From: an uncultured Anaerolinea sp.
GTDB lineage: Bacteria > Chloroflexota > Anaerolineae > Anaerolineales > UBA4823
Length of the DNA stretch: 64,000 nt
Direction of reading: 5' to 3'
Assembly: GCA_964503145.1 (NCBI GenBank)
Contig: CAZCYV010000004.1
Location: 142,414 to 206,413, forward strand
In this document: in pieces, positions 53,201 through 64,000 of the stretch
How positions within the stretch are numbered: the stretch's first letter is position 1
Layout of the letters: each line of letters begins with the position of its first letter
Made by a program: the position numbers and the translations under genes
The notes under the pieces: generated by a model
Databases searched by the model: none
What the model saw: only the letters and a program-made list of their open reading frames with translations
Told to the model about the DNA's origin: nothing

Positions 53201-54235
53201 CTGGTCGCTCGAGCAGCGCGAACTCGCCAGGGGCAGGTGGCAAACGATGTGCGTCGCGAGAGCGGTTATCTGCCCAATCCGCTGCTGCTGGATACGTTGT
53301 CTGAAATGGCGGTGCCAATGATCATTGGTGATCGCCTGCTGGGTGTATTCGACGTGCAGTCGGATAAGCTGAATCACTTCCATGAGGAAGATGTGCGCAT
53401 CTATAGCACGCTGGCTGCTCAGATCGCTGTGGCGCTACAAAATGCCAAACTTTACGCTGAACAACTGGCGACAGTAGAGCGCTTGCGCGAATTGGATAAC
53501 ATGAAATCCGCCTTTCTGGCAAACATGAGCCATGAATTGCGCACGCCGCTGAACTCGATCCTCGGTTTTACTCAGGTGATCATGGAGGGACTGGATGGCC
53601 CGCTGACTGAAGTGATGCTGGCGGACCTGGAATTGATCGAAAAGAACGGTAAACACCTGCTAAACCTGATCAATGAAGTCCTTGACATGGCGAAGATCGA
53701 CTCAGGGCGGCTGAGTTTGAACCCTGAACCCGTGGATCTGTATGAGCTCATGGAGGATGTAATTGGCACAAGCGCGCCGCTGGCCAGGGAAAAAGATCTC
53801 TTCGTGAAACTTGAGGCGGCGCCAGCCGAAGACTGGAGAGTGATGGCAGACCAGGTTCGGATGCGACAGATATTCCTGAATCTGATCGGGAACGCCATCA
53901 AATTCACGGAGGCAGGCGGCGTTACAATCACTATGAACAAGGTGCGACAATCCGCTGAGGCGGGCAGCGATTTGGTGCAGTTGCGCATCCAGGATACGGG
54001 CATTGGTATCCCGAGAAATAAACTGGATGAGATTTTCGAGGCCTTTACGCAAGTGGATAGCTCGACCACTCGAAAGGTGGGCGGCACCGGCTTGGGCCTA
54101 CCAATCAGCCGTCGCCTGGTTGAGATGCATGGTGGTCGCTTGTGGGCGGAGAGCGAAGGCATCGGAAAGGGCGCGACGTTTGTGCTAGAGTTGCCGGTGG
54201 GCGAGAGCAGCGCCAATTCTACCGAGGCGTACTAG
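50252..54235 (+). CDS. Large sensor histidine kinase: helical N-domain-PAS-(GAF-like x5)-HisKA-HATPase_c
   Basis: 1327 aa. PAS (LGHIPQAVFWKDRDLVYLGCNLEFAKDAG...GMYEDITPRKQAE). Five GAF-terminal helices (IAVAIESTRL, VAQALESARL, ATAIQSLKL, VAQALERARL, IAVALQNAKL). H-box MSHELRTPLNSI (His codon 53531..53533), N-box IGNAIKFT, G-boxes DTGIGI and GTGLGLPI. Confidence 0.92.
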   Translation: MTDERIMLNPLRQRLEEIAQALNQSLRSIPDFVCLPVSVTHAFARQDVNLVATVLETGDSQRFLHDFMARAQDRLQRGLSKEALLQGLDCLEQTVTPRVVDLDAARLVWQSLSQARFALGKQNGSNGRSAATEQADDLATPKQAATLVKSNPSVGRKGGTGPLGRADYNTQLELLKLVLGHIPQAVFWKDRDLVYLGCNLEFAKDAGLTSVDEIVGKTDFDMPWREQAELYRSDDRAVLESGVAKLDYEEPQTTPEGNIIWLRTSKIPMRDPQGNIFAVLGMYEDITPRKQAEEAILREKAHAEALLAEQKRLEAQLQQTLERRGFQVQVSTQIAQEIAMAPDLRTLFQSVVTLVKERFDYYHVQLLRYEPALNAVILVAGYGDVGQSMLQAGHQLPLGTGLIGTAAALGETQLRPSVAADPDWRSNPLLPDTKGEIAVPIKLRDQVLGVLDVQSDREGVLGEDDRLLLEGLCGQIAVAIESTRLRREMEERLHELDLLYRSSHREGWNEFIQRIQGCNAYLYENLEVRPIGDGDRQGGDADPADWAEPKADILVPLSIRGQIIGELGVFDDPIHPLSEGERKLVEQVSDQVAQALESARLYEQTQASLAETQMMYTGSARIIASGTLDEILKALVETTRLNELDQVIIELFDRPWETEPPETMVNAAVWEREGVPSKESVGSVYHMRELPFLSMMDRSLPLVVKDMLTDERVDPATREVAVDQLGIRGQVFWPMVAGGQWFGALSGQSGKPLTLEQQDIRRIGSLVAQAATAIQSLKLQQEMRSRLQELTALQRLMSREAWSAYQAQLTDEARGYVFNQVELLPVRTASMQEQESRAGLLMDDNNSGYVAPLEVRGEPIGALGVKLDVSRSLTEEEEAFLQAVSEQVAQALERARLMEQTQKSAVELQAVAEVGTATATILDPEQLLQQVVDLTKERFGLYHAHIYLVDEAGENLVLTVGAGEVGRSMTAQGWSIPITLEDSLVARAARTRQGQVANDVRRESGYLPNPLLLDTLSEMAVPMIIGDRLLGVFDVQSDKLNHFHEEDVRIYSTLAAQIAVALQNAKLYAEQLATVERLRELDNMKSAFLANMSHELRTPLNSILGFTQVIMEGLDGPLTEVMLADLELIEKNGKHLLNLINEVLDMAKIDSGRLSLNPEPVDLYELMEDVIGTSAPLAREKDLFVKLEAAPAEDWRVMADQVRMRQIFLNLIGNAIKFTEAGGVTITMNKVRQSAEAGSDLVQLRIQDTGIGIPRNKLDEIFEAFTQVDSSTTRKVGGTGLGLPISRRLVEMHGGRLWAESEGIGKGATFVLELPVGESSANSTEAY

Positions 54236-54270
54236 GGCATAAAAGTTTCAGACAACAACATGACGATCTT

Positions 54271-55938
54271 TTGGAGGTTGCAATAGCAAAGCCTGTTTTT
54301 CTCCAGTGTGTCGAATGCGGTCACGAGCAAGCCTATCGGGCTGGCGAGCCGACGATCTGTGAATTTTGCCAGTCCTCCTGGGTGGAGGCGCATTATGATT
54401 ACCACGCTTTCAAGCGAGAGCTTTTGCGCGGATTACCCGGCCGGGCGTTCAACATCTGGCGTTACCATGATGTACTACCGATCGAGAACCCGCGCAGCCT
54501 GGATCTGGAAACTGTCGGCGGCACTCCACTATACCCGCTGCGACGCTTTGCACATGAGCTGGGCTACCGACATGTCTATGTCAAGGACGAGCGGTTCGGG
54601 CCGACCAGTTCATTCAAAGACCGCCAGGCGGCGGTTTCGGTAGCAGCGATGGTCGAGAATGGGCTCAAGGAAGCTGTCATCGCGTCGACGGGGAATGCAG
54701 CAGTGGCATATGCGGCTGCTTGCGCTCGCGCTGGAATCAAGCTTTGGGTGTTCATGACCAGTATGGTGCCGCAGGAGAAGCTGCGTGAGGTGGCGCTCTA
54801 TGGGGCAGAAGTCGTCAAAGTAAGTGGGACGTATGATCAGACGAAAGCCATTGCGGCAGAATTTGCCAAGCGGCGCGGCCTGGCGCTTGACCGTGGCGCC
54901 AGCAGCCTGCCTTCGCGCGAGTCTATGAAAACCATTGCCTATGAGATTGTCGAGCAATTAGGCTGGCGTGCCCCAGATTGGTACATTCAGGCGGTCAGCG
55001 GCGGCCTGGGACCGCTCGGAGTTTACCATGGCTTTCAGGAGCTCTATGCAATGGGTTTGATCGATCGAGTGCCATCTCTGGGGGTTATCCAGGCCGAGGG
55101 GTGCGCACCGATGGTTCAGGCGTTTCGAGACGGTCAAAGCACCGCAAAAGCTGTCACGCCGCAGACGCGAATCGCAATCCTCTCCACTGGAGATCCAGGA
55201 AAGACCTATACTTACCTTTGGAAGCTGGTCCAGCGGTATGGTGGTACAATGGAAGCCGTTTCGGATGGCGAGGCGTTCAGGATCATGCGCTCTCTGGCAA
55301 AGAGCGAAGGTCTGGCGGTCGAGCCGGCTACTGCGGTAGCTTTTGCCGGACTTTCCAAGATGATCCAAAACGATGTGTTCAAGCCTGAAGAGCTTGTAGT
55401 GGTCAATTGCACCGGGCATACTTTCCCGGTGGAGAAACACGTTTTGGGTGATCAATGGAGCGTGGATCTCAAGTTGGATGATCAGACATCACCGGTTGTC
55501 CAGGAAGGACTACAAGCCGCGCTGGAACGACTCGATGAAAAGACTACCACGGTCCTGATCATGGATGACAACCCGAATGACGCCCTGCTGGTCAGACGTT
55601 TTCTAGAGGCGCGCAAGAATTACCGTGTGTTCCAGGCTGCGGATGGAGAGGACGGATTGAGGCAGGCTCAGGAGCGCTTACCTGACCTGATCATCATGGA
55701 TTTGATGATGCCTAACCTGGATGGTTTTGGCGTGCTTCAAGCGCTCAAGGGCGACGAGCGGACAAAAGGGATACCGATCATTGTCGTGAGCGCTAAAGAT
55801 TTGACTGATTTGGATCGGGCTCGGTTGAGAGGAAATATCGAGGCGATTTATCAAAAAGGCTCGTTGCCGCCGCGGGTCTTTGTAGATCAGGTGGTGGAGG
55901 TCATCGAGCATAAACGGGAGGGCCTGGATGGCATATAA
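54271..55938 (+). CDS. Threonine synthase-like PLP-dependent enzyme fused to a C-terminal receiver (REC) domain
   Basis: Zinc ribbon CVECGH...CEFCQ. PLP lysine motif GPTSSFKDRQ (Lys codon 54616..54618) and the ASTGNAAVAYAA loop. From about aa 425 there is a full REC: VLIMDDNPND, DLIIMDLMMPNLDG, IIVVSAK. The ORF track begins at 54142 inside the kinase gene. TTG 54271 is the first plausible start after the kinase stop, and no in-frame ATG lies upstream of the zinc ribbon. The start is uncertain. Confidence 0.85.
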   Translation: MEVAIAKPVFLQCVECGHEQAYRAGEPTICEFCQSSWVEAHYDYHAFKRELLRGLPGRAFNIWRYHDVLPIENPRSLDLETVGGTPLYPLRRFAHELGYRHVYVKDERFGPTSSFKDRQAAVSVAAMVENGLKEAVIASTGNAAVAYAAACARAGIKLWVFMTSMVPQEKLREVALYGAEVVKVSGTYDQTKAIAAEFAKRRGLALDRGASSLPSRESMKTIAYEIVEQLGWRAPDWYIQAVSGGLGPLGVYHGFQELYAMGLIDRVPSLGVIQAEGCAPMVQAFRDGQSTAKAVTPQTRIAILSTGDPGKTYTYLWKLVQRYGGTMEAVSDGEAFRIMRSLAKSEGLAVEPATAVAFAGLSKMIQNDVFKPEELVVVNCTGHTFPVEKHVLGDQWSVDLKLDDQTSPVVQEGLQAALERLDEKTTTVLIMDDNPNDALLVRRFLEARKNYRVFQAADGEDGLRQAQERLPDLIIMDLMMPNLDGFGVLQALKGDERTKGIPIIVVSAKDLTDLDRARLRGNIEAIYQKGSLPPRVFVDQVVEVIEHKREGLDGI

Positions 55939-56352: not shown

Positions 56353-57513
56353 ATGTCCTATTTAATCGATTTACAGTGCTCAGAGTGCGGTAAATCTTAT
56401 GACCCGCACACCATCCAGACATTTTGCCTGGATTGTCAGGCGCCTTTGCTGGCAGTCTATGACCTGGAGAAGGCACGCGCGGCTTTAGATCGGGATGCCA
56501 TCCGGCGGCGCCCGCGGGGGATGTGGCGCTGGCAAGAGTTGCTTCCGGTGTTCCAGGCCGAGAATCGGATCAGCCTGGGTGAGGGGGATACGCCGCTGTT
56601 GCATTTGCCGCGAGTAGGCGAGAAATTGGGCCTGTCCCAACTGTATGTGAAGGATGAGAGCCTGAATCCAACAGGATCGTTCAAGGCGCGCGGTTTAGCG
56701 GCAGCAGTATCGAAGGCCAAGGAATTGGGGATACGTAAAGTGATCATCCCGACGGCGGGAAATGCCGGCGGTGCGATGGCAGCCTATGCAGCGCGTTCGG
56801 GGATCGAGGCGTGCATCTACATGCCCAAAGATACGCCGTTTGCGAACATGGAGGAGAGCCGCATTGCAGGCGCGCAGGTCATCCTGATCGATGGGTTGAT
56901 CAGCGAAGCGGCAGGGATGGCGGGCGTCCGCGCGCGCGATGAGGGATGGTTTGACGTATCGACTTTCAAAGAGCCTTACCGCTGTGAGGGGAAGAAGATC
57001 ATGGGCTATGAACTGGCGGAGGAGTTCAACTGGCATTTGCCCGAAGTGATCGTTTATCCGACTGGCGGCGGTACGGGGTTGGTGGGGATGTGGAAAGCAT
57101 TTCATGAGCTCAAGGCCTTGGGCTGGCTGGAAGACTCGGCCATGCCGCGCATGGTCGCGGTGCAGGCAGCCGGTTGTGCACCCGTGATCAAAGCCTTTGA
57201 ATCTGGCGCGGAGTTTTGCGATTACTGGGTTGGGGCGCAAACGGTGGCTTCTGGATTGCGGGTGCCTAAGAGCTTTGCCGATCAGATCATTTTGCGCGAT
57301 CTGCGCGCCAGCCATGGTAATGCAGTAGCTGTGAGCGACGATGAATTGTTACAGGCGCAGAGTATGTTAGCAGCGATGGAAGGCATATTTGCTGCTCCGG
57401 AAGGCGCAGCAACGTTGGCGGCTGTGATTCGTTTGGCACAACAAGGCTGGGTCCATCCTGATGAACGGATCGTTTTGTTTAACACGGGTACTGGTTTGAA
57501 GTATTTGAAATAA
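56353..57513 (+). CDS. thrC: Threonine synthase-like PLP-dependent enzyme (unfused paralogue)
   Basis: 386 aa. Zinc ribbon CSECGK...CLDCQ, PLP lysine motif NPTGSFKARG (Lys codon 56683..56685), and the PTAGNAGGA loop. Assignment to genuine threonine synthase rather than another fold-type II enzyme is tentative. Confidence 0.8.
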   Translation: MSYLIDLQCSECGKSYDPHTIQTFCLDCQAPLLAVYDLEKARAALDRDAIRRRPRGMWRWQELLPVFQAENRISLGEGDTPLLHLPRVGEKLGLSQLYVKDESLNPTGSFKARGLAAAVSKAKELGIRKVIIPTAGNAGGAMAAYAARSGIEACIYMPKDTPFANMEESRIAGAQVILIDGLISEAAGMAGVRARDEGWFDVSTFKEPYRCEGKKIMGYELAEEFNWHLPEVIVYPTGGGTGLVGMWKAFHELKALGWLEDSAMPRMVAVQAAGCAPVIKAFESGAEFCDYWVGAQTVASGLRVPKSFADQIILRDLRASHGNAVAVSDDELLQAQSMLAAMEGIFAAPEGAATLAAVIRLAQQGWVHPDERIVLFNTGTGLKYLK

Positions 57514-57611: not shown

Positions 57612-58454
57612 CTACGGCAAGATGGCAAAGACGCGAGCCGGGAAACCCGAGCCGTCTTGCGGCTTGGGGAAGCTGACGACGACCAGAGCGCCAAACTCGG
57701 GCACCTTGTCCAGATTGGTGAGCAATTCAATCTGGTAGTGGTTGGTGCTCAAGATGTACGCTTCCAGTGAATAGTCGCCAACGCTGGTGGCAATGCCGGG
57801 ATCGGTGTCAGTCGGCTCATGGCCCGATGCGGTGATGTGGCGCACCTCATAGAGGTACTTAAGCACCTCCATACTCCAGCCGGGATAGTGAGCGATGCCA
57901 TTGGCGTCTTTATTCTGCATGGCCGCCATATCGGGCCAGCGTTTTGACCAATCGGTGCGCATGGCCACAAAAGCCCGCTCTGGAATCTTGCCGTACTTTT
58001 TCTCCCACATCCGAACGTCGTCCATGGTGATGGTGTAGTCAGGATTCATGGCAACTTTCTTATGCACGTCAATCACCACCAACGGCATGATCATCTCCTT
58101 GACGTCGATTTGATCCAGAGTGCGCAGGCCGCGGATGAAGTGAGCAGGCGGGTCGGCGTGGGTGCCCCATTGTCCGACGTGCGAGAAATACTGGGCGTAA
58201 AATCCTGTGCCCAGTGTGCCAGGCCCTGGGGGATTTTCGTCATACCAGAAGAGCAGCTCACGCTGCTCATCTGGGAAACCAGGCCAGTGGGGAATTCCTG
58301 GGGCGAAGGTGTGGGTCAGATCTACAAATTGCTTATTTCGGATAATGTGCCACACACCGATCAGAGCCGAACCCTTTGGCGTATAGCCGGTGATCAAGAC
58401 GACCAATAGAGCTGCTGCCAGGACAAAAATAATGATTCTTTCCTTGCTCTTCAT
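57612..58454 (-). CDS. Cyclase-family protein (kynurenine formamidase-like fold), secreted or membrane-anchored
   Basis: The FVDLTHTF...GTHADPPAHF metal-binding pattern is typical of the putative cyclase/arylformamidase family. N-terminal anchor IIIFVLAAALLVVLI. Start taken at ATG 58454 (AAGGAGGAA upstream); the ORF track extends to 58484. Confidence 0.82.
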   Translation of the reverse strand: MKSKERIIIFVLAAALLVVLITGYTPKGSALIGVWHIIRNKQFVDLTHTFAPGIPHWPGFPDEQRELLFWYDENPPGPGTLGTGFYAQYFSHVGQWGTHADPPAHFIRGLRTLDQIDVKEMIMPLVVIDVHKKVAMNPDYTITMDDVRMWEKKYGKIPERAFVAMRTDWSKRWPDMAAMQNKDANGIAHYPGWSMEVLKYLYEVRHITASGHEPTDTDPGIATSVGDYSLEAYILSTNHYQIELLTNLDKVPEFGALVVVSFPKPQDGSGFPARVFAILP

Positions 58455-58644
58455 GGCAAATTCCTCCTTTTGCTGCTTTTGCACTCAGTCGCTTCTGGCT
58501 TCTGGTTCCGCCTGGTCCGTACCCAATCACAGCAGGAGGTGATCGGCGATGTTGGCTGATTTTGGGCTAATTTATTATGCCAGAAAATCGACAAAAAATC
58601 ACGTATCATTTGTCATATTTTCGAAAGGCAGGAGCGTTGACCGG

Positions 58645-58681
58645 AAACAAAACAGCCCGGGTCGCGATAGATCCCAGGCTG
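58645..58681 (-). terminator. Candidate intrinsic terminator downstream of glyA
   Basis: On the minus strand: CAGCCTGGG, 11-nt loop, CCCGGGCTG (9-bp stem with one mismatch; 58653..58661 and 58673..58681), followed by TTTTGTTT (58645..58652). Confidence 0.6.
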
Positions 58682-58706
58682 CGTACGTGATTATGTTGGC
58701 ACGGGC

Positions 58707-60017
58707 TTATGCCGGCACCGGGAATTGTGCGCAGAGTTCGGCGACTTGCTGGCGGGTGGCTTGCTGCAGATCGGTGTTTTGTGGGTCACGCAGTATCTGA
58801 CAGATCCATTTAGCGATCTGCTGCATTTGTTGCGGCCCCATCCCACGGGTGGTGGCGCAGGGGGTGCCCAAGCGAATCCCGCTGGTAACAGTCGGCTTTT
58901 CTGGATCGTAAGGGATCATATTCTTGTTGGTATGGATACCAGACTGATCCAGAATCGCTTCGGCTTCTTTGCCGCTGACCCTTTGTTTACCGTTGACCGA
59001 TCTTAGATCGACCAGCATCAGGTGGTTATCTGTCCCACCACTAACCAGGCGAATGCCTTCATCTTGGAATGCCTTAGCGAGCGCCTGGGCGTTGTCCAGG
59101 ATACGTTGTGAGTAAGCCTTGAACTCAGGGCGCAGCGCCTCGCCGAATGCGACTGCCTTGGCGGCGATCACGTGCATCAATGGGCCGCCTTGGGTGCCAG
59201 GGAAGACCGCAGAATCGATCTTCTTCGCCAGTTCGGCCTTGCAGAGGATCATACCGCCGCGCGGGCCACGCAGGGTTTTGTGAGTGGTAGTCGTGACCAC
59301 ATCGCAATACGGCACAGGATCGGGATGCAGTTTGGCTGCGACCAGGCCAGCGACATGCGCCATATCCATCATCAAATAGGCGCTAACCGAGTCGGCGATC
59401 TGACGCAGGCGAGGAAAATCGAACCAGCGAGGATAAGCGCTGGCGCCGGCCACAATCAGCCGAGGACGATGTTCCAGCACCATCTTTGCCAGGTCATCGT
59501 AATCTAATTGTTCGGTCTCTGGGTGGACGCCATAGTGGATGAAGTTGTATAGCTTGCCGCTAAAGTTGAATGCTGCGCCATGGGTGAGATGTCCACCATG
59601 ATCGAGTTTGAGCGCCAGCACGGTATCGCCTGGCTGAATCAGGGCCAGATAAGCCGCCGAATTGGCCTGCGCGCCGGAATGAGGTTGGACATTGGCGTGG
59701 TCGGCGCCAAATAATTGTTTTGCACGCTCGATTGCAAGATTTTCGGCGACATCTACAAATTGGCAACCGCCATAATAGCGTCGCCCAGGATAGCCTTCGG
59801 CATACTTGTTCGTTAAAACGGAACCCAACGCAGCTAAAACTGCGGGGCTAACGTAGTTTTCGGAAGCGATGAGTTCGATGCCGTCTTGTTGTCGCAGCCG
59901 TTCGGCCTCAATGGCGTTGTATATTTCTGGATCTTGTTGATGCAAGACCCGACGCGGATCGACAGCCTGATCCCAGGTGGTCAGGCTTGCTGGGAATTCG
60001 CCAGGATTCGCAGACAT
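58707..60017 (-). CDS. glyA: Serine hydroxymethyltransferase
   Basis: 436 aa with [14 protein letters not shown], the PLP-lysine region [16 protein letters not shown], and overall SHMT colinearity. Confidence 0.96.
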
Positions 60018-60234
60018 TTGAGCATTCCTTTCGCTTTGTATTGTATCAGCCTATTCGGGATATCGGGTTCCAGCTTCGAGGCCCAATTCTTATCGATCGA
60101 GCCAGCAATATCAGCTCGCGACGTTGACATCAGACGACAGTTGTCTTACAACATTATTTTAGTACGGATCCGTGCTTGTGTCAAGCAATCGAGGCCGAAA
60201 TTACCCGATTACGGGGCGATTCTGCCGAAACTTC

Positions 60235-60263
60235 TTGACTCGGATAGGGAAAACAGTTATAAT
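60235..60263 (+). promoter_or_regulatory. Near-consensus sigma70 promoter of the GntR-family gene
   Basis: TTGACT (60235..60240), exactly 17-nt spacer, TATAAT (60258..60263). The predicted transcription start falls on the repeated GTCAGACGAC motif. Confidence 0.7.
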
Positions 60264-60270
60264 AAAAGTT

Positions 60271-60290
60271 GTCAGACGACTATCGTCAGA
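60271..60290. promoter_or_regulatory. Candidate GntR/HutC operator (GTCAGACGAC-TAT-CGTCAGA; core inverted repeat GACGA-n3-TCGTC)
   Basis: It overlaps the predicted +1 of the regulator promoter. A related copy, TCAGACGACAGTTGTCT, is at 60130..60146, and CTATCGTCTG is at 61115..61124 upstream of the carbamoyltransferase genes. Confidence 0.45.
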
Positions 60291-60323: not shown

Positions 60324-61073
60324 ATGATTCAAAGAAGTGTTCCGCTGTCTCAACAAGTGGCAAATGACATCCTGGCTTCTATCGAGGCTGGCACCCTGGC
60401 GCGCCCCGGAGATGGTTTGCTTCCATCCGAGGCCGAATTGAGTCAGCGATATGGGGTGAGCCGTGCGACCATTCGAGAGGCGCTCTCCCGGTTAGAGCAA
60501 CGCGGTGTGATTATACGTCGTCATGGGGTGGGGACTTTTGTAAACTCCCAGCGGCCGGTCATCGAGTCGGGTCTGGAACGCCTCGAGAGCCTGGATACCC
60601 TGGCTCAACGGATGGGCCTGCAAACACAGATGAAGGATCTAAGGCTCGAGGAGCGCGTTGCTACAGAAAGCGAAGCGAGGCAATTGCGAATTCCAGACGG
60701 CAGCAGCGTATTGGCGGTGTCACGGGTTATCAGCATCGGAGATAGGCGGGTTGCTTATTTGGTGGACATCGTTCCGACGGATGTTCTCAGTATGCAAGAT
60801 CTCAAGGACGGTTTTGTTGGCTCGGTGCTCGATATCTTTTTGCGGCTTGGCAGGCCCGCGCTCAGCCACTCCCTGACGGAGATTTCGATGGAGAACGCCA
60901 ATGAAATTGTCGCCAGGCAACTGAGCCTGCACAGGGGTGAGATGCTGCTTAAGTTGACTGCGCAGTTGTTTAGCCTGGATGGGCGAGTCGTGGATTATTC
61001 ACACAGCTTCTTTGTACCTGGTTATTTTCGTTTTCACGTTGTACGGAGGATTGATCCGTGCGATATTGCGTAA
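60324..61073 (+). CDS. GntR-family transcriptional regulator, HutC subfamily (wHTH plus UTRA domain)
   Basis: MIQRSVPLSQQVANDILASIEAGTLARPGDGLLPSEAELSQRYGVSRATIREALSRLEQRGVIIRRHGVGTFV is a canonical GntR wHTH. The C-terminal half is UTRA-like. The ORF track starts at 59886 inside glyA; I used ATG 60324. Confidence 0.9.
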   Translation: MIQRSVPLSQQVANDILASIEAGTLARPGDGLLPSEAELSQRYGVSRATIREALSRLEQRGVIIRRHGVGTFVNSQRPVIESGLERLESLDTLAQRMGLQTQMKDLRLEERVATESEARQLRIPDGSSVLAVSRVISIGDRRVAYLVDIVPTDVLSMQDLKDGFVGSVLDIFLRLGRPALSHSLTEISMENANEIVARQLSLHRGEMLLKLTAQLFSLDGRVVDYSHSFFVPGYFRFHVVRRIDPCDIA

Positions 61074-61184
61074 GCCGGATAAGTTAATCACGTATCTGGC
61101 CAGTCCGAGAATTGCTATCGTCTGGTCCGAGTTGGACCTTGAATTTCAACCTAAACCATACAATTACGGAGGCAAGAAACTACA

Positions 61185-62138
61185 ATGAGAAGCTTCATGG
61201 GTCGTGACATCTTATCTTTGAAGGATTTCGAGCGCCAGGAATTTTTCCGCGTCTTCGAAATCGCCAAGCAGCTCGAGCCGATTGCGCGCAATCGGCGAAA
61301 CAGCAATCTATTGGCCGAAAAGACCCTGGTGACGGCATTCTATCAGCCCAGCACGCGCACGCGCCTGGCGCACGAAGCTGCCATGCATCGTCTGGGTGGG
61401 CATGTGACCGGTTTTGCCGATGCCAAGATGACCCGCGCGGGAGATTTCTACCAGGAGTCGATCAAGGACACCGTTAAGATGCTGGAGTTCTATGGCGACG
61501 TTATCGTGATGCGCCATTTCCAGCAAGGCGCGCCGCACGAGGCGGCCAAGTGGGCTTCGGTGCCAATCATCAACGGCGGCGATGGCTGGGGCGAGCATCC
61601 GACGCAGATCCTCACCGACTTGTACACGGTGCTCGTCGAAAAGGGTCGGATCGATGGCCTGAAGTGGCTGGCGGTTGGTGATATGCGCATGCGCACAATG
61701 CACTCCCTGGGGTACGCGCTCACTCAATTCGATTGTCCGATCACCTTTGTGGCTCCGCCGGAGATGTCGCTCACGCCGGAATTCAAAGCTGAGTTGAAAG
61801 AGTACAGCCTGGATTTCAAGGAGGCCGAGCACGTCGAGCAGGCGATTGGGGACGCGGATGTGATCCTGGTCGAGCCAGTGGTGCAGCCGGATTACACCAA
61901 GTCGCGCGATGAACGGGCTGGCGATGTTGGATTGACCCCCGCCAACTACAAGATTACGCGTGAACTGCTGGCAACCAAAGCCAAGCCGGATGCGATTTTG
62001 CTCCATTCTCTGCCGCGCATGGACGAAATTCCGACGGACGTGGATATTACCCGCTGGTCGCGTTACTGGCAAGAAGCCTTCAACGGCGTAGTCATGCGCA
62101 TGGCGCTGTTGGCGCTGGTGCTGGGCGCGGTCGAATAA
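61185..62138 (+). CDS. Aspartate carbamoyltransferase-like (PyrB-family) transcarbamylase with atypical second-substrate motifs
   Basis: 317 aa, colinear with ATCase catalytic chains: STRTR, IVMRH, EHPTQ, MRTMHSL, LPRMDEI. The canonical MTRVQKER segment reads VEPVVQPDY and HPLPR reads HSLPR. Confidence 0.85.
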   Translation: MRSFMGRDILSLKDFERQEFFRVFEIAKQLEPIARNRRNSNLLAEKTLVTAFYQPSTRTRLAHEAAMHRLGGHVTGFADAKMTRAGDFYQESIKDTVKMLEFYGDVIVMRHFQQGAPHEAAKWASVPIINGGDGWGEHPTQILTDLYTVLVEKGRIDGLKWLAVGDMRMRTMHSLGYALTQFDCPITFVAPPEMSLTPEFKAELKEYSLDFKEAEHVEQAIGDADVILVEPVVQPDYTKSRDERAGDVGLTPANYKITRELLATKAKPDAILLHSLPRMDEIPTDVDITRWSRYWQEAFNGVVMRMALLALVLGAVE

Positions 62139-62162
62139 GCCCTTGTTTGAGGAGATCGAGCG

Positions 62163-63143
62163 ATGCAAACCTTTTTACACGGTCGAGACCTGATTGGCGA
62201 TCTGGACTTTAGCAAAGAAGAAGTCGAAACTGTACTAGACGTCGCATTTGACCTGAAGCGCAAGCGAGCGCTGAACGAACCTCACCCCTATTTGCGCGAT
62301 AAGGTGCTGGCGATGCTGTTCTTCTTCTCCAGCACCCGAACGCGTGGCTCTTTCGAGGCTGGCATGGCGCAACTTGGCGGACACGCGGCGTTCATCGAAA
62401 GCAAGACCACTCAAATCGCGCATGGGGACACCCCAAAGGAGATCGGCGAGATCTTTGGGCGTTACTTTGACGGGATTGCTATCCGCCACGTGGATTGGGG
62501 GGTGGGCAATGGCTATTTGAACGCTGTTGCCAGGGCGTCCCGCGTTCCTGTGCTCAATATGCAGTGCGATATCTATCATCCATTTCAATGTCTGGCTGAC
62601 CTGATGACCATCATCGAGAAAAAGGGCCGAGACCTTCGTCGCAAGAAGATGGTGGTTTCATGGGCTTATGCGGCGTCTTATCAAAAGCCGATGTCGGTTC
62701 CACAATCGCTGGTGTTGCAGATGCCGCGTTTTGGGATGGATGTCATTTTGGCCCATCCGCCCGAATTCAAGCTGATGCCCGAAATTATGGATCAGGCGCA
62801 GGAGCAAGCCCGCAAATTCGGGGTCGGCTTCGAAGTCATGGATGACATGGAAGCAGCGTTCAAGGATGCCGATATCATTTATGCTAAATCCTGGGGCGCA
62901 ATGGTTCATACCCCGGATCCAGAAGAGGGCGCCAGAATCATCAAGAAATATTCGCATTGGATCACCGATGAGCGGAAGATGGCTTTGGCCAAGCCGGACG
63001 CAATTTACATGCACCCCCTGCCTGCGGACCGCAACATCGAAGTGACCGACGGCGTAATGGATGGCCCAAATTCGGTTGTGTACGATGAGGCCGAAAATCG
63101 TTTGCACGTTCAGAAGGCCGTGATGGCGCTAACGATGGGTTAA
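62163..63143 (+). CDS. YgeW-like carbamoyltransferase
   Basis: 326 aa with SSTRTR, TQIAHGDTPKEI and NMQCDIYHPFQ. These match my recollection of E. coli YgeW (SQIAHGETVRET, NLQCDIDHPTQ) better than OTC or ATCase. HPLPADR is near the C-terminus. Confidence 0.8.
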   Translation: MQTFLHGRDLIGDLDFSKEEVETVLDVAFDLKRKRALNEPHPYLRDKVLAMLFFFSSTRTRGSFEAGMAQLGGHAAFIESKTTQIAHGDTPKEIGEIFGRYFDGIAIRHVDWGVGNGYLNAVARASRVPVLNMQCDIYHPFQCLADLMTIIEKKGRDLRRKKMVVSWAYAASYQKPMSVPQSLVLQMPRFGMDVILAHPPEFKLMPEIMDQAQEQARKFGVGFEVMDDMEAAFKDADIIYAKSWGAMVHTPDPEEGARIIKKYSHWITDERKMALAKPDAIYMHPLPADRNIEVTDGVMDGPNSVVYDEAENRLHVQKAVMALTMG

Positions 63144-63153
63144 GGAGGTCAAG

Positions 63154-64000
63154 ATGCCGGAGAATAAAGTTGCAATCGTTGCCGTTGGCGGCAACTCCTT
63201 GATCATCGATAAGCAACACGAAGACGTCCCTTCACAGGTGAAGGCGGTCGAGGAGACCTGCAAGCACATCGCAGACATGGTCCAGCGCGGCTGGAATGTG
63301 GTGATCACGCATGGCAATGGCCCGCAGGTGGGTTTCATCCTGCGTCGTAATGAGTTGGCTTATCCAGAGGTCCACTCGACGCCGTTGGATGTGATCGGCG
63401 CGGATACCCAGGGTTCGATTGGGTACATGATCTCGCGCGCGCTCGATAATGAGTTCAAGAAGCGCGGTATCAATCGATCTGTGGCAGCCGTGGTCACTCA
63501 GGTGCTGGTGGACCGAAACGATCCGGGTTTCAAGAACCCCACCAAAGGCATTGGCGGTTTCACCACGAAAGAGAAGGCAGAAATCTTCGCCCAGGAAGGC
63601 TGGGTCGTGAAAGAAGACGCCGGTCGCGGCTGGCGGAGAATGATCGCTTCCCCCGTGCCATTGAAGATCATCGAGCTTGACGCGATCAAGAGTCTGATCG
63701 ATAATGGCTTTATCGTCGTGGCAGTTGGCGGCGGCGGGATCCCGGTGATCGAAGATGAGAATGGAATGTTGCAGGGCACATATGCGGTGATCGATAAGGA
63801 TCGCGCCAGCAGCCTTTTGGCTTCGAACCTGAAAGCCGATCTATTTCTCATTTCGACCGCTGTGGAGAAAGTGGCGATCAACTTCAACAAGCCGGATCAA
63901 AAATGGCTGGATCGGATGACCCTGAGTGAGGCGAAGAAACTCTACCAGGAAGGGCATTTTCTGTCCGGCTCTATGGGACCGAAGATCGAGGCGATTATCG
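63154..64000 (+). CDS. arcC: Carbamate kinase (3' end beyond window)
   Basis: Absent from the ORF track because it is open at the window edge. ATG 63154 follows a GGAGG. The translation MPENKVAIVAVGGNSLII...NVVITHGNGPQVGFILRRNE...VVAVGGGGIPV is canonical carbamate kinase. Confidence 0.9.
   Translation, partial: MPENKVAIVAVGGNSLIIDKQHEDVPSQVKAVEETCKHIADMVQRGWNVVITHGNGPQVGFILRRNELAYPEVHSTPLDVIGADTQGSIGYMISRALDNEFKKRGINRSVAAVVTQVLVDRNDPGFKNPTKGIGGFTTKEKAEIFAQEGWVVKEDAGRGWRRMIASPVPLKIIELDAIKSLIDNGFIVVAVGGGGIPVIEDENGMLQGTYAVIDKDRASSLLASNLKADLFLISTAVEKVAINFNKPDQKWLDRMTLSEAKKLYQEGHFLSGSMGPKIEAII

Follow-up and report, generated by a model that had tools for sequence, protein, structure and literature searches.

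The 64,000-nucleotide stretch analysed here (hereafter the window; positions 142,414 to 206,413, forward strand, of contig CAZCYV010000004.1, assembly GCA_964503145.1, from an uncultured Anaerolinea sp.) ends with genes for a GntR/HutC-family regulator, two carbamoyltransferases that we call TC1 and TC2, and a carbamate kinase. This module is most likely the lower, energy-conserving branch of the Chloroflexota version of the reductive (2,8-dioxopurine) uric-acid pathway, and from the sequences we think it reasonably probable that 2,3-diureidopropionate loses both of its ureido groups by phosphorolysis, one to TC2 and the other to TC1, for at most two ATP per urate. The feature is real and strongly conserved; the variant is new, while the underlying pathway has been known since 2025. 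What we read directly from the data is gene content, homology, conservation, co-occurrence and a pattern of gene replacement.

The reductive urate pathway was solved in gut bacteria by two studies in 2025 (Liu et al., bioRxiv 10.1101/2025.04.24.650524; Li et al., PMC12507026). In the published scheme, XdhD or XdhAC forms 2,8-dioxopurine (“yanthine”), YgfK reduces it, and SsnA and HyuA open the rings to give 2,3-diureidopropionate; YgeW then produces carbamoyl phosphate, from which YqeA makes ATP, YgeY hydrolyses the other ureido group, and YgeX deaminates diaminopropionate to pyruvate (Liu et al.; PMC12507026). The formation of ATP from 2,3-diureidopropionate by YgeW and YqeA was shown by Liu et al. 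(bioRxiv 10.1101/2025.04.24.650524). Neither Liu et al. nor Li et al. mentions a second carbamoyltransferase, and our literature search for a ureidopropionate-linked carbamoyltransferase with a kinase returned nothing relevant. Li et al. (PMC12507026) did remark that an F420 luciferase-family enzyme takes the place of YgfK/UacX in the SsnA clusters of Chloroflexota; the last gene of our operon is of just this type, and F420 genes flank SsnA in the genome.

In the scheme that we propose, purines would enter through a BMP-type ABC importer, urate would be converted to 2,8-dioxopurine by an XdhD/YgfM enzyme encoded on another contig, and the F420-dependent luciferase-like enzyme at the end of the operon would carry out the reduction. 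SsnA and a D-hydantoinase would open both rings to give 2,3-diureidopropionate, TC2 would phosphorolyse its 3-ureido group, and TC1 would phosphorolyse the remaining 2-ureido group (that of N-alpha-carbamoyl-2,3-diaminopropionate), a step that E. coli performs by hydrolysis with YgeY. A single kinase would turn both carbamoyl phosphates into ATP, up to two per urate and not one, and a CysK-like pyridoxal-phosphate (PLP) enzyme probably deaminates 2,3-diaminopropionate to pyruvate in replacement of a missing YgeX. The HutC-type regulator would repress its own promoter, and probably the operon, by way of a GACGA-n3-TCGTC palindrome until an effector binds. We name the two ureido groups of 2,3-diureidopropionate as the substrates with moderate confidence.

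The window is part of contig C4 of a 4.5-Mb Anaerolineales genome that is 97.6% complete. Open reading frames (ORFs) and Pfam/NCBIfam models confirm the layout described in the first-pass annotation, namely a HutC regulator, a PyrB-like and a YgeW-like transcarbamylase and a kinase, all on the plus strand; the gaps from regulator to TC1, TC2 and kinase are 111, 24 and 10 nt in the ORF list (Table 1). There is no pyr or arg gene near these four genes, as that annotation had also stated, the true pyrB and pyrC being on another contig. Past the end of the window, the kinase is followed by a hairpin, the PLP enzyme, the ABC importer (two permeases, a BMP/PnrA-type binding protein and an ATPase) and, as the last gene of the operon, the F420-type luciferase-like oxidoreductase (L002); all genes from the regulator onwards are co-directional with short gaps, and a convergent pckA closes the cluster downstream. 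The annotation had proposed a catabolic, ATP-yielding transcarbamylase and kinase module and pointed to the region past position 64,000 for the rest of it. The PLP enzyme, purine-type BMP importer and F420-type reductase found there bear this out: the transporter that had been expected is present, whereas the diaminopropionate ammonia-lyase expected with it is absent and a CysK-like PLP enzyme is found instead.

The full-length kinase passes the curated equivalog model TIGR00746 (370.7 bits for a cut-off of 358.25), is 50% identical to E. coli YqeA and is the only carbamate kinase of the genome (one match in a genome-wide search). A putrescine carbamoyltransferase (PTCase)-like gene lies beside an agmatine deiminase gene on contig C5 (162246-165668, L003) without a carbamate kinase of its own, so that the operon kinase, being the only one, would have to serve the agmatine/PTCase route as well. 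Directly after the kinase stop codon, a 14-bp GC-rich hairpin with a weak T tail (L002 4523-4553, window-equivalent 64109-64139) may act as a terminator or attenuator between the TC1-TC2-kinase genes and those for the PLP enzyme, transporter and oxidoreductase. The PLP enzyme (486 aa, L002 4593-6053) has a core of the CysK / cystathionine-beta-synthase / beta-cyanoalanine-synthase class, whose members make aminoacrylate from beta-substituted alanines, with helical extensions at both termini. For its gene, a TTG start overlapping the kinase stop was rejected for Met27 of the longest ORF, because the Atlas record begins there, homologues align from there, and the hairpin lies inside the supposed extension.

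The upper part of the pathway is encoded elsewhere in the genome. SsnA (493 bits, cut-off 455.5) is on contig C29, in the order XdhD-like FAD subunit, Mo/Fe-S subunit, Nudix gene, SsnA, F420:NADP oxidoreductase (Fno), cofE, nitroreductase-like gene, cofD and cofC. This stretch of F420 genes, SsnA and XdhD/YgfM-like genes spans L111 5876-15638, and the gene between XdhD and SsnA codes for a Nudix hydrolase. The D-hydantoinase (521 bits, cut-off 393) is encoded on contig C1, in a second related locus (932242-950966; L113, L114) together with an 8-oxoguanine-deaminase-family amidohydrolase, a BMP binding protein, a threonine-synthase (ThrC)-like PLP enzyme and a GT2 glycosyltransferase. A 198-aa protein without a family match is encoded in the same locus; its gene and the ThrC-like and GT2 genes are kept in the cluster across Anaerolineae and have no role in the published pathway. 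By model search and tblastn, the genome has no YgeY (best 111.2 bits for a cut-off of 321.5) and no YgeX or other diaminopropionate ammonia-lyase (best 48.7 for 276). No full-length YgfK relative is found either, the flavoprotein region of YgfK alone being matched in part on other contigs; no search was aimed at UacX. Since SsnA and the ring-opening genes are kept, YgeY is gone and TC1 stands in the place of YgeY, TC1 is the best candidate for the removal of the second ureido group. As these genes are split here, their linkage to the operon rests on relatives (L129, L117 and others), to which we return below.

TC1 has the Pfam domains OTCace_N and OTCace, and its best model is that of aspartate carbamoyltransferase (ATCase), TIGR00670, with 245.9 bits for a cut-off of 236.95; it stays below the cut-off of NF002032 (221.2 for 263 bits), and its best matches among solved structures are archaeal ATCases. 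The carbamoyl-phosphate residues of PyrB (S52 T53 R54 T55, R105, H134, Q137 and L267) correspond to S56 T57 R58 T59, R110, H138, Q141 and L276 of TC1, which are invariant across nine orthologues. Taking the residue roles in ATCase sites from PMC4581275 (R167 for the alpha-carboxylate; K84, R229 and Q231 for the beta-carboxylate), the alpha-carboxylate arginine is retained as TC1 R170 and the three beta-carboxylate residues are replaced, with conserved acidic residues in both loops. The 80s loop reads RAGDFY (R-A-G-D-(F/W/Y)-Y in orthologues) and has one extra residue, with neither S80 nor K84 of PyrB kept; the 240s loop reads VEPVVQPDY (VEPV(V/I)Q(P/A)DY across all orthologues) where the PyrB of this genome has TRVQKER, and the RxQxER motif is lost; the HPLP of PyrB is HSLP in TC1. 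With its alpha-carboxylate site kept and its beta-carboxylate site lost, TC1 therefore appears to fit an N-alpha-carbamoyl amino acid with a non-carboxylate side chain.

Such features recall the pseudo-ATCases defined by Barba et al. in 2013 (PMC4016543). Subgroup 2 of these is represented by a Nocardioides sp. JS614 protein encoded next to a ygeW homologue, xdhABC and hyuA, and subgroup 3 has the motifs HSLP and VxP; no function was given to either, and we found no later functional assignment for them in the literature searched. TC1 bears the marks of the group, as it keeps STRT and HPTQ, has HSLP for HPLP, has lost RxQ and is a paralogue of a genuine pyrB. In our tree, TC1 and its orthologues form a clade of their own (99) inside the pseudo-ATCases (95), and the genuine ATCases, including the PyrB of this genome, form a separate clade (97). 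Orthologues of TC1 in Anaerolineae are 70-93% identical and lie beside TC2 and the kinase in dozens of species. We give hardly any credence to the idea that TC1 is an ordinary or redundant ATCase paralogue standing here by chance: the TIGR00670 score and the archaeal ATCase structures would suit it, but the true pyrB (with the RxQxER and HPLP motifs) adjoins pyrC and a pyrF/pyrE-like gene on contig C1, TC1 lacks K84, R229, Q231 and HPLP and falls outside the ATCase clade, and its position beside TC2 and the kinase is fixed in all these species. The view that the PyrB-like gene is not biosynthetic, already taken in the first-pass annotation, thus holds. The genome has five carbamoyltransferase genes altogether, for the true PyrB, an ornithine carbamoyltransferase (OTCase), the PTCase-like protein, TC1 and TC2.

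A search for TC1-like sequences among 1.8 billion representatives returned many pseudo-ATCases with R-A-G-D-(F/Y)-Y and varied 240s loops. The contexts of two distant HSLP-type members (P0013 and P0022) have unrelated neighbours, either regulators with HMGL-like and aminotransferase genes or a creatininase gene with a serine hydroxymethyltransferase gene, and say nothing on the role of TC1. Two more (P0005 and P0006) are on contigs too short to be informative, although P0006 adjoins an M20 peptidase gene. A further HSLP-type pseudo-ATCase, with 43% identity to TC1, is encoded on a metagenome contig (L210, 51-2471) by a gene that overlaps one of the creatininase family and is followed by a serine hydroxymethyltransferase fragment; this arrangement hints at a further function for pseudo-ATCases.

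TC2 also has the OTCace_N and OTCace domains and remains below every curated cut-off: 260.8 for 288 bits with N-acetylornithine carbamoyltransferase (AOTCase), 259.6 for 306 with OTCase, 195.5 for 453 with YgeW (NF005538) and 186.3 for 500 with TIGR03316, the alignments to the YgeW models spanning residues 5-247 only. With 326 aa it falls 70 residues short of E. coli YgeW (396 aa), to which it is 34% identical; the N- and C-terminal helices of YgeW and the two-helix insert of its 240s loop are alignment gaps in TC2, and the proline-rich loop and extended 120s loop are present. The carbamoyl-phosphate residues of YgeW are retained. Among the residues proposed for its second substrate in a review (Q160, K270, S200, K203, D124 and Q98*; PMC4581275), YgeW Q98, Q160, S200, K203 and K270 correspond to TC2 Q84, Q134, S172, K175 and K242, which are invariant in 17 orthologues down to 56% identity; D124 aligns with H109 at a place where the alignment is uncertain. 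More distant relatives of TC2 are 40-42% identical to YgeW, and in the tree, from which AOTCase and N-succinylornithine carbamoyltransferase (SOTCase) are absent, TC2-like proteins and YgeW form one group apart from OTCase and PTCase (SH-aLRT 96). The predicted model of TC2 (pLDDT 86.6) gives Z scores of 34-38 for OTCases, PTCases, AOTCases and ATCases alike in a fold search (35-38 for OTCases and AOTCases) and does not discriminate for YgeW-likeness or the trefoil knot. On sequence grounds, then, TC2 is a trimmed YgeW relative and not a YgeW orthologue, and the earlier label “YgeW-like” stands for the tree group and the substrate residues but not for length, identity or curated models. As to the phylogenetic placement that the annotation had called for, TC1 goes with the pseudo-ATCases and TC2 with YgeW.

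The regiochemistry could be the opposite within the same pathway, TC2 removing the 2-ureido group to give albizziin and TC1 then removing the 3-ureido group of albizziin. In favour of this, Li et al. found albizziin once HyuA, YgeW and phosphate had acted, and obtained pyruvate from albizziin by means of YgeY and YgeX (PMC12507026); a commentary (PMC12990295), like the authors of the pathway, leaves open which ureido group goes first and through which enzyme; and TC1 sits in the slot of YgeY. Against this, the ancestors of TC1 carbamoylate an alpha-amino group and the alpha-carboxylate arginine by the reaction centre is kept; TC2 keeps K270 and Q160 of YgeW, at the positions where AOTCase and SOTCase anchor the distal carboxylate of an omega-amino substrate (PMC4581275); and Liu et al. 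(bioRxiv 10.1101/2025.04.24.650524) report 3-amino-2-ureidopropanoate as the YgeW product. We consider the reverse order unlikely and prefer TC2 acting first on the 3-ureido group, which its YgeW/AOTCase-like distal carboxylate anchors would fit, as the ancestry and retained arginine of TC1 would fit 3-amino-2-ureidopropanoate as its substrate. Proposed in this way, the regiochemistry agrees with Liu et al. and not with Li et al.

The distribution of these genes supports the link to urate. Relatives of the window genes come nearly all from Anaerolineales or other Chloroflexota metagenome-assembled genomes, with a few isolates such as Pelolinea submarina and Thermanaerothrix solaris. In a phylum sample of 151 Chloroflexota genomes, each at least 85% complete, TC2 is found in 28 genomes across many families, SsnA in 32 and both in 26, often 3-10 kb apart; related genomes are not independent, and we therefore put no statistic on this co-occurrence. 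The connection with anaerobic purine/urate degradation suggested by the first-pass annotation is thereby strengthened, TC2 and SsnA often being adjoining. In Pelolinea and many other Anaerolineae, the pathway genes lie in one cluster with regulator-TC1-TC2-kinase; one locus (L129) has the luciferase-like oxidoreductase, YgeY, TC1, TC2, kinase, SsnA, YgfM, XdhD and hydantoinase genes side by side, and in a distant Chloroflexota genome (G086/L205) that lacks YgeY, PLP-TC1-TC2 adjoin XdhD-SsnA-YgfK-like genes.

The neighbour upstream of TC2 varies. Around the closest TC2 orthologues (80 loci), this place is taken by TC1 in 62, by TC1 with YgeY in 3, by YgeY without TC1 in 4 and by neither of the two in 5, the remaining 6 loci being too short to judge; TC1 is thus upstream of TC2 in 65 of 74 informative loci, TC1-TC2-kinase being the usual order, and a GntR/HutC-family regulator lies upstream of TC1 in 61 of the 80. 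Relatives from the same order that lack TC1 have a true YgeY-family amidase in its slot, after the regulator and before TC2 (450-485 bits, cut-off 321.5), which agrees with the earlier suggestion that two enzymes serve two carbamoyl groups or two steps. In the family of our genome (61 genomes), SsnA is found in 56 and TC1 in 52, and a high-scoring YgeY (at least 438 bits) in 4 of 9 TC1-negative genomes versus 2 of 52 TC1-positive ones, both times adjoining TC1; eight further TC1-positive genomes have lower-scoring M20 paralogues, 45-270 kb from TC1 where they share its contig.

A clean swap of YgeY for TC1 was dropped, as the phylum sample has many genomes with both genes adjacent; these side-by-side genomes weakened the claim to three states, YgeY only, both, and TC1 only. 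Intermediate YgeY-TC1-TC2 arrangements occur in some relatives, and the simplest history would be a presumed ancestral YgeY-TC2-kinase order followed by insertion of TC1 and then loss of YgeY. TC1 has also been found on a contig labelled Verrucomicrobiia (L167, 8144-12428), where a protein 90% identical to that of the window is encoded beside a true YgeW (67% identical to E. coli) and the SsnA, Xdh and PLP genes around them share just 32-60% identity with their Anaerolineales counterparts; this could be a recent lateral transfer of TC1 into the urate cluster of another lineage, or a chimeric or mis-binned contig.

Several observations weigh against our reading, the coexistence of YgeY and TC1 first among them. 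In the phylum sample, YgeY accompanies TC2 almost everywhere, and 6 of the 8 TC1-positive genomes keep it (in 5 of them directly beside TC1, in the order YgeY-TC1-TC2), so that the replacement is not clean, most TC1-positive genomes of the sister family retaining an adjacent YgeY; TC1 could therefore have a role of its own. Two readings of this coexistence offer themselves: it may be a redundant intermediate state or an option between an irreversible route and one that yields ATP, or it may mean that TC1 acts on some other substrate, and it is the main reason why our confidence goes no higher. Four genomes of the family (G165, G174, G190 and G206; 86-98% complete) have SsnA and neither TC1 nor YgeY; they may have a third solution to ureido cleavage, e.g., an amidohydrolase resembling UacY, unless the missing genes were simply left out of the assemblies. 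The pathway genes of our genome are spread over three contigs, and the conserved ThrC-like PLP enzyme and GT2 glycosyltransferase have no place in the scheme. Two phosphorolyses in succession are thermodynamically demanding. The turnover of YgeW was weak in Li et al. (PMC12507026), and our regiochemistry is deduced from homology because the 2025 papers contradict each other as to the ureido group that YgeW takes off. The tree lacks AOTCase, SOTCase and the 2013 reference pseudo-ATCases. Finally, all substrates and the regiochemistry are inferred, as are the ATP yield, the part played by the PLP enzyme and the mode of regulation. We find it an even call whether TC1 is a new N-alpha-carbamoyl-2,3-diaminopropionate (3-amino-2-ureidopropanoate) carbamoyltransferase that arose from ATCase and displaced YgeY, gives many Anaerolineae two ATP per urate and settles the regiochemistry of YgeW and YgeY.

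If the adjacency of YgeY and TC1 in many genomes means that their roles are not identical, TC1 might act on another ureido acid, such as N-carbamoyl-beta-alanine or N-carbamoyl-aspartate, formed from pyrimidines by way of the dihydropyrimidinase-type hydantoinase, or allantoate, with carbamoyl phosphate then coming from two pathways. The hydantoinase of the cluster scores best on the dihydropyrimidinase model, another pseudo-ATCase (the Rubrobacter “UGTCase”) has been given an allantoate/ureidoglycine carbamoyltransferase activity (Barba et al. 2013, PMC4016543), and catabolic beta-alanine and aspartate carbamoyltransferases were raised as possibilities in a 2015 review (PMC4581275). The residues of TC1 speak otherwise: N-carbamoyl-beta-alanine has no alpha-carboxylate and a distal one, whereas TC1 is the opposite, with the R167 equivalent kept and R229/Q231 lost; the aspartate-binding RxQxER motif is absent; and the TC1 motif is HSLP, not the HPLA of the Rubrobacter subgroup. 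No dihydropyrimidine dehydrogenase, uricase or allantoinase is found among the annotated cluster genes, for which no targeted search was made. Moreover, 39 of the 52 TC1-positive genomes of the family keep SsnA and have no YgeY-family match at E 1e-60 with which to finish the urate pathway. We therefore doubt that TC1 serves another ureido acid; the beta-alanine/pyrimidine version, which came from a dihydropyrimidinase-type gene of Pelolinea, was dropped on the SsnA/Xdh linkage and the TC1 residue pattern.

It is also conceivable, and in our view very improbable, that the module is anabolic, the kinase supplying carbamoyl phosphate from which TC1 and TC2, in concert with the PLP enzymes and the glycosyltransferase, would build a ureido compound, for instance one resembling albizziin or a diureido metabolite. 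Anabolic 2,3-diaminopropionate carbamoyltransferases are known from antibiotic pathways (PMC4581275), and the conserved CysK-like, ThrC-like and GT2 genes of the cluster are unexplained. The operon, however, carries a HutC-type regulator and an ABC importer and is tightly associated with SsnA, Xdh, hydantoinase and purine deaminase genes; TC1 is exchangeable with YgeY, a hydrolase able only to degrade; and the HDLP and (T/S)RWQTTG motifs that mark the anabolic enzymes are found in neither TC1 nor TC2.

Regulation of the module as a catabolic operon can be sketched from the region around the regulator gene. The regulator has a GntR domain (PF00392, residues 8-73, 67.6 bits) at its N-terminus and a UTRA domain (PF07702, residues 97-234, 67.9 bits) at its C-terminus, and this combination of winged helix-turn-helix and UTRA places it in the HutC subfamily. 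Upstream of the gene lie a putative promoter and operator-like sequences (Table 1). The five relatives with the most similar regulator have a perfect 9-3-9 form of the palindrome 30-47 nt 5' of the regulator gene, where the density of sites is about 11 times the background of the same loci; in the same comparison, this perfect form was not found where the regulator is more divergent. The palindrome was found by eye and by script, an inverted-repeat scan of two spacers having missed it. The arrangement of promoter and palindrome fits autorepression by the HutC protein.

Table 1. Coding and putative regulatory features of the module, in window coordinates.
Feature	Position	Strand	Remarks
TTGACA hexamer, then near-palindromic operator-like copy (60130-60146)	60124..60146	+	Read from sequence; CAGACGA half-site common to main palindrome
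Putative sigma-70-like promoter, TTGACT-17 nt-TATAAT, before regulator gene	60235..60263	+	Consensus scan, 11/12 matches (L002 649-677)
Candidate HutC operator, inverted repeat, core GACGA-n3-TCGTC	60271..60290	+	Just 3' of -10 hexamer
GntR/HutC-family regulator	60324..61073	+	249 aa; winged helix-turn-helix and UTRA effector domain
Single operator half-site, reverse complement of CAGACGA, in regulator-TC1 spacer	61115..61124	+	Weak alone
TC1, pseudo-ATCase carbamoyltransferase	61185..62138	+	317 aa
TC2, short YgeW-related carbamoyltransferase	62163..63143	+	326 aa
Carbamate kinase	63154..64000 in window	+	282 of 316 codons; gene end at window-equivalent 64104

On the other side of the regulator, a gene of the cyclase / kynurenine-formamidase family (PF04199) and a serine hydroxymethyltransferase gene (57612-60017, minus strand) are divergent from it. 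None of the relatives that we examined has this arrangement, which is probably a mark of the rearrangement by which the cluster was split. Further upstream, a threonine-synthase-like PLP enzyme fused to a receiver domain (54142-55938) precedes a true threonine synthase (56353-57513).

The reductive urate pathway bears on hyperuricaemia and gout, and the variant described here is a natural experiment in which the hydrolase of one step is replaced by a carbamoyltransferase; the ancestry of TC1 in alpha-amino carbamoylation would thus point to the 2-ureido group as the substrate of YgeY. If our reading is true, the substrate-level ATP yield from purine is doubled, which matters for slow-growing anaerobic fermenters such as the Anaerolineae of sediments, hot springs and sludge; the pseudo-ATCases, orphans since 2013, gain a function; and an annotation is corrected, since the TC1 family passes one curated ATCase (pyrB) model. 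For urate-degrading probiotics, the operon would offer putative parts: an F420 reductase, a second ATP-yielding step and a new diaminopropionate-consuming PLP enzyme.

Compared with the urate pathway of E. coli and Clostridium sporogenes, the genome shares SsnA, an XdhD/YgfM-type Mo enzyme, a D-hydantoinase, a YgeW relative next to the kinase, and purine uptake genes, and would follow the same logic, from ring opening to 2,3-diureidopropionate, carbamoyl phosphate and ATP. It differs in that YgeY and YgeX are missing, with TC1 in the YgeY slot and a CysK-like PLP enzyme where the lyase is expected; the luciferase-like enzyme of F420 type stands for YgfK/UacX, an ABC (BMP) transporter for UacT and a HutC-type regulator for the sigma-54 protein YgeV; and the genes are at three loci. 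TC2 itself differs from E. coli YgeW in being shorter by the 70 residues noted above and in failing the curated YgeW models.

Among the pseudo-ATCases (PMC4016543), TC1 shares the motif pattern given above and, with the Nocardioides protein, a YgeW-type neighbour and a purine-catabolic context; the comparison with the Nocardioides, Rhodopirellula (RB13301) and Rubrobacter (Rxyl_2847) proteins is one of motifs and gene context only. The Rubrobacter “UGTCase” subgroup, with HPLA and an aerobic allantoin context, is unlike TC1. As for AOTCase and SOTCase, the AOTCase model gives TC2 as high a score as the OTCase model does, and 2,3-diureidopropionate can formally be seen, like N-acetylcitrulline, as an omega-ureido amino acid acylated at N-alpha; TC2 differs from AOTCase in having Gln at E144, as YgeW does, and in its catabolic context, AOTCase belonging to arginine biosynthesis. 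The arginine and agmatine deiminase pathways offer the same principle, a catabolic operon in which a carbamoyltransferase phosphorolyses a ureido group and a carbamate kinase makes ATP. Here, by contrast, there would be no deiminase and a purine-derived substrate, the genome has its own OTCase and PTCase-like genes elsewhere, which would have to share the single kinase, and two carbamoyltransferases of different lineages are proposed to work in series on one substrate.

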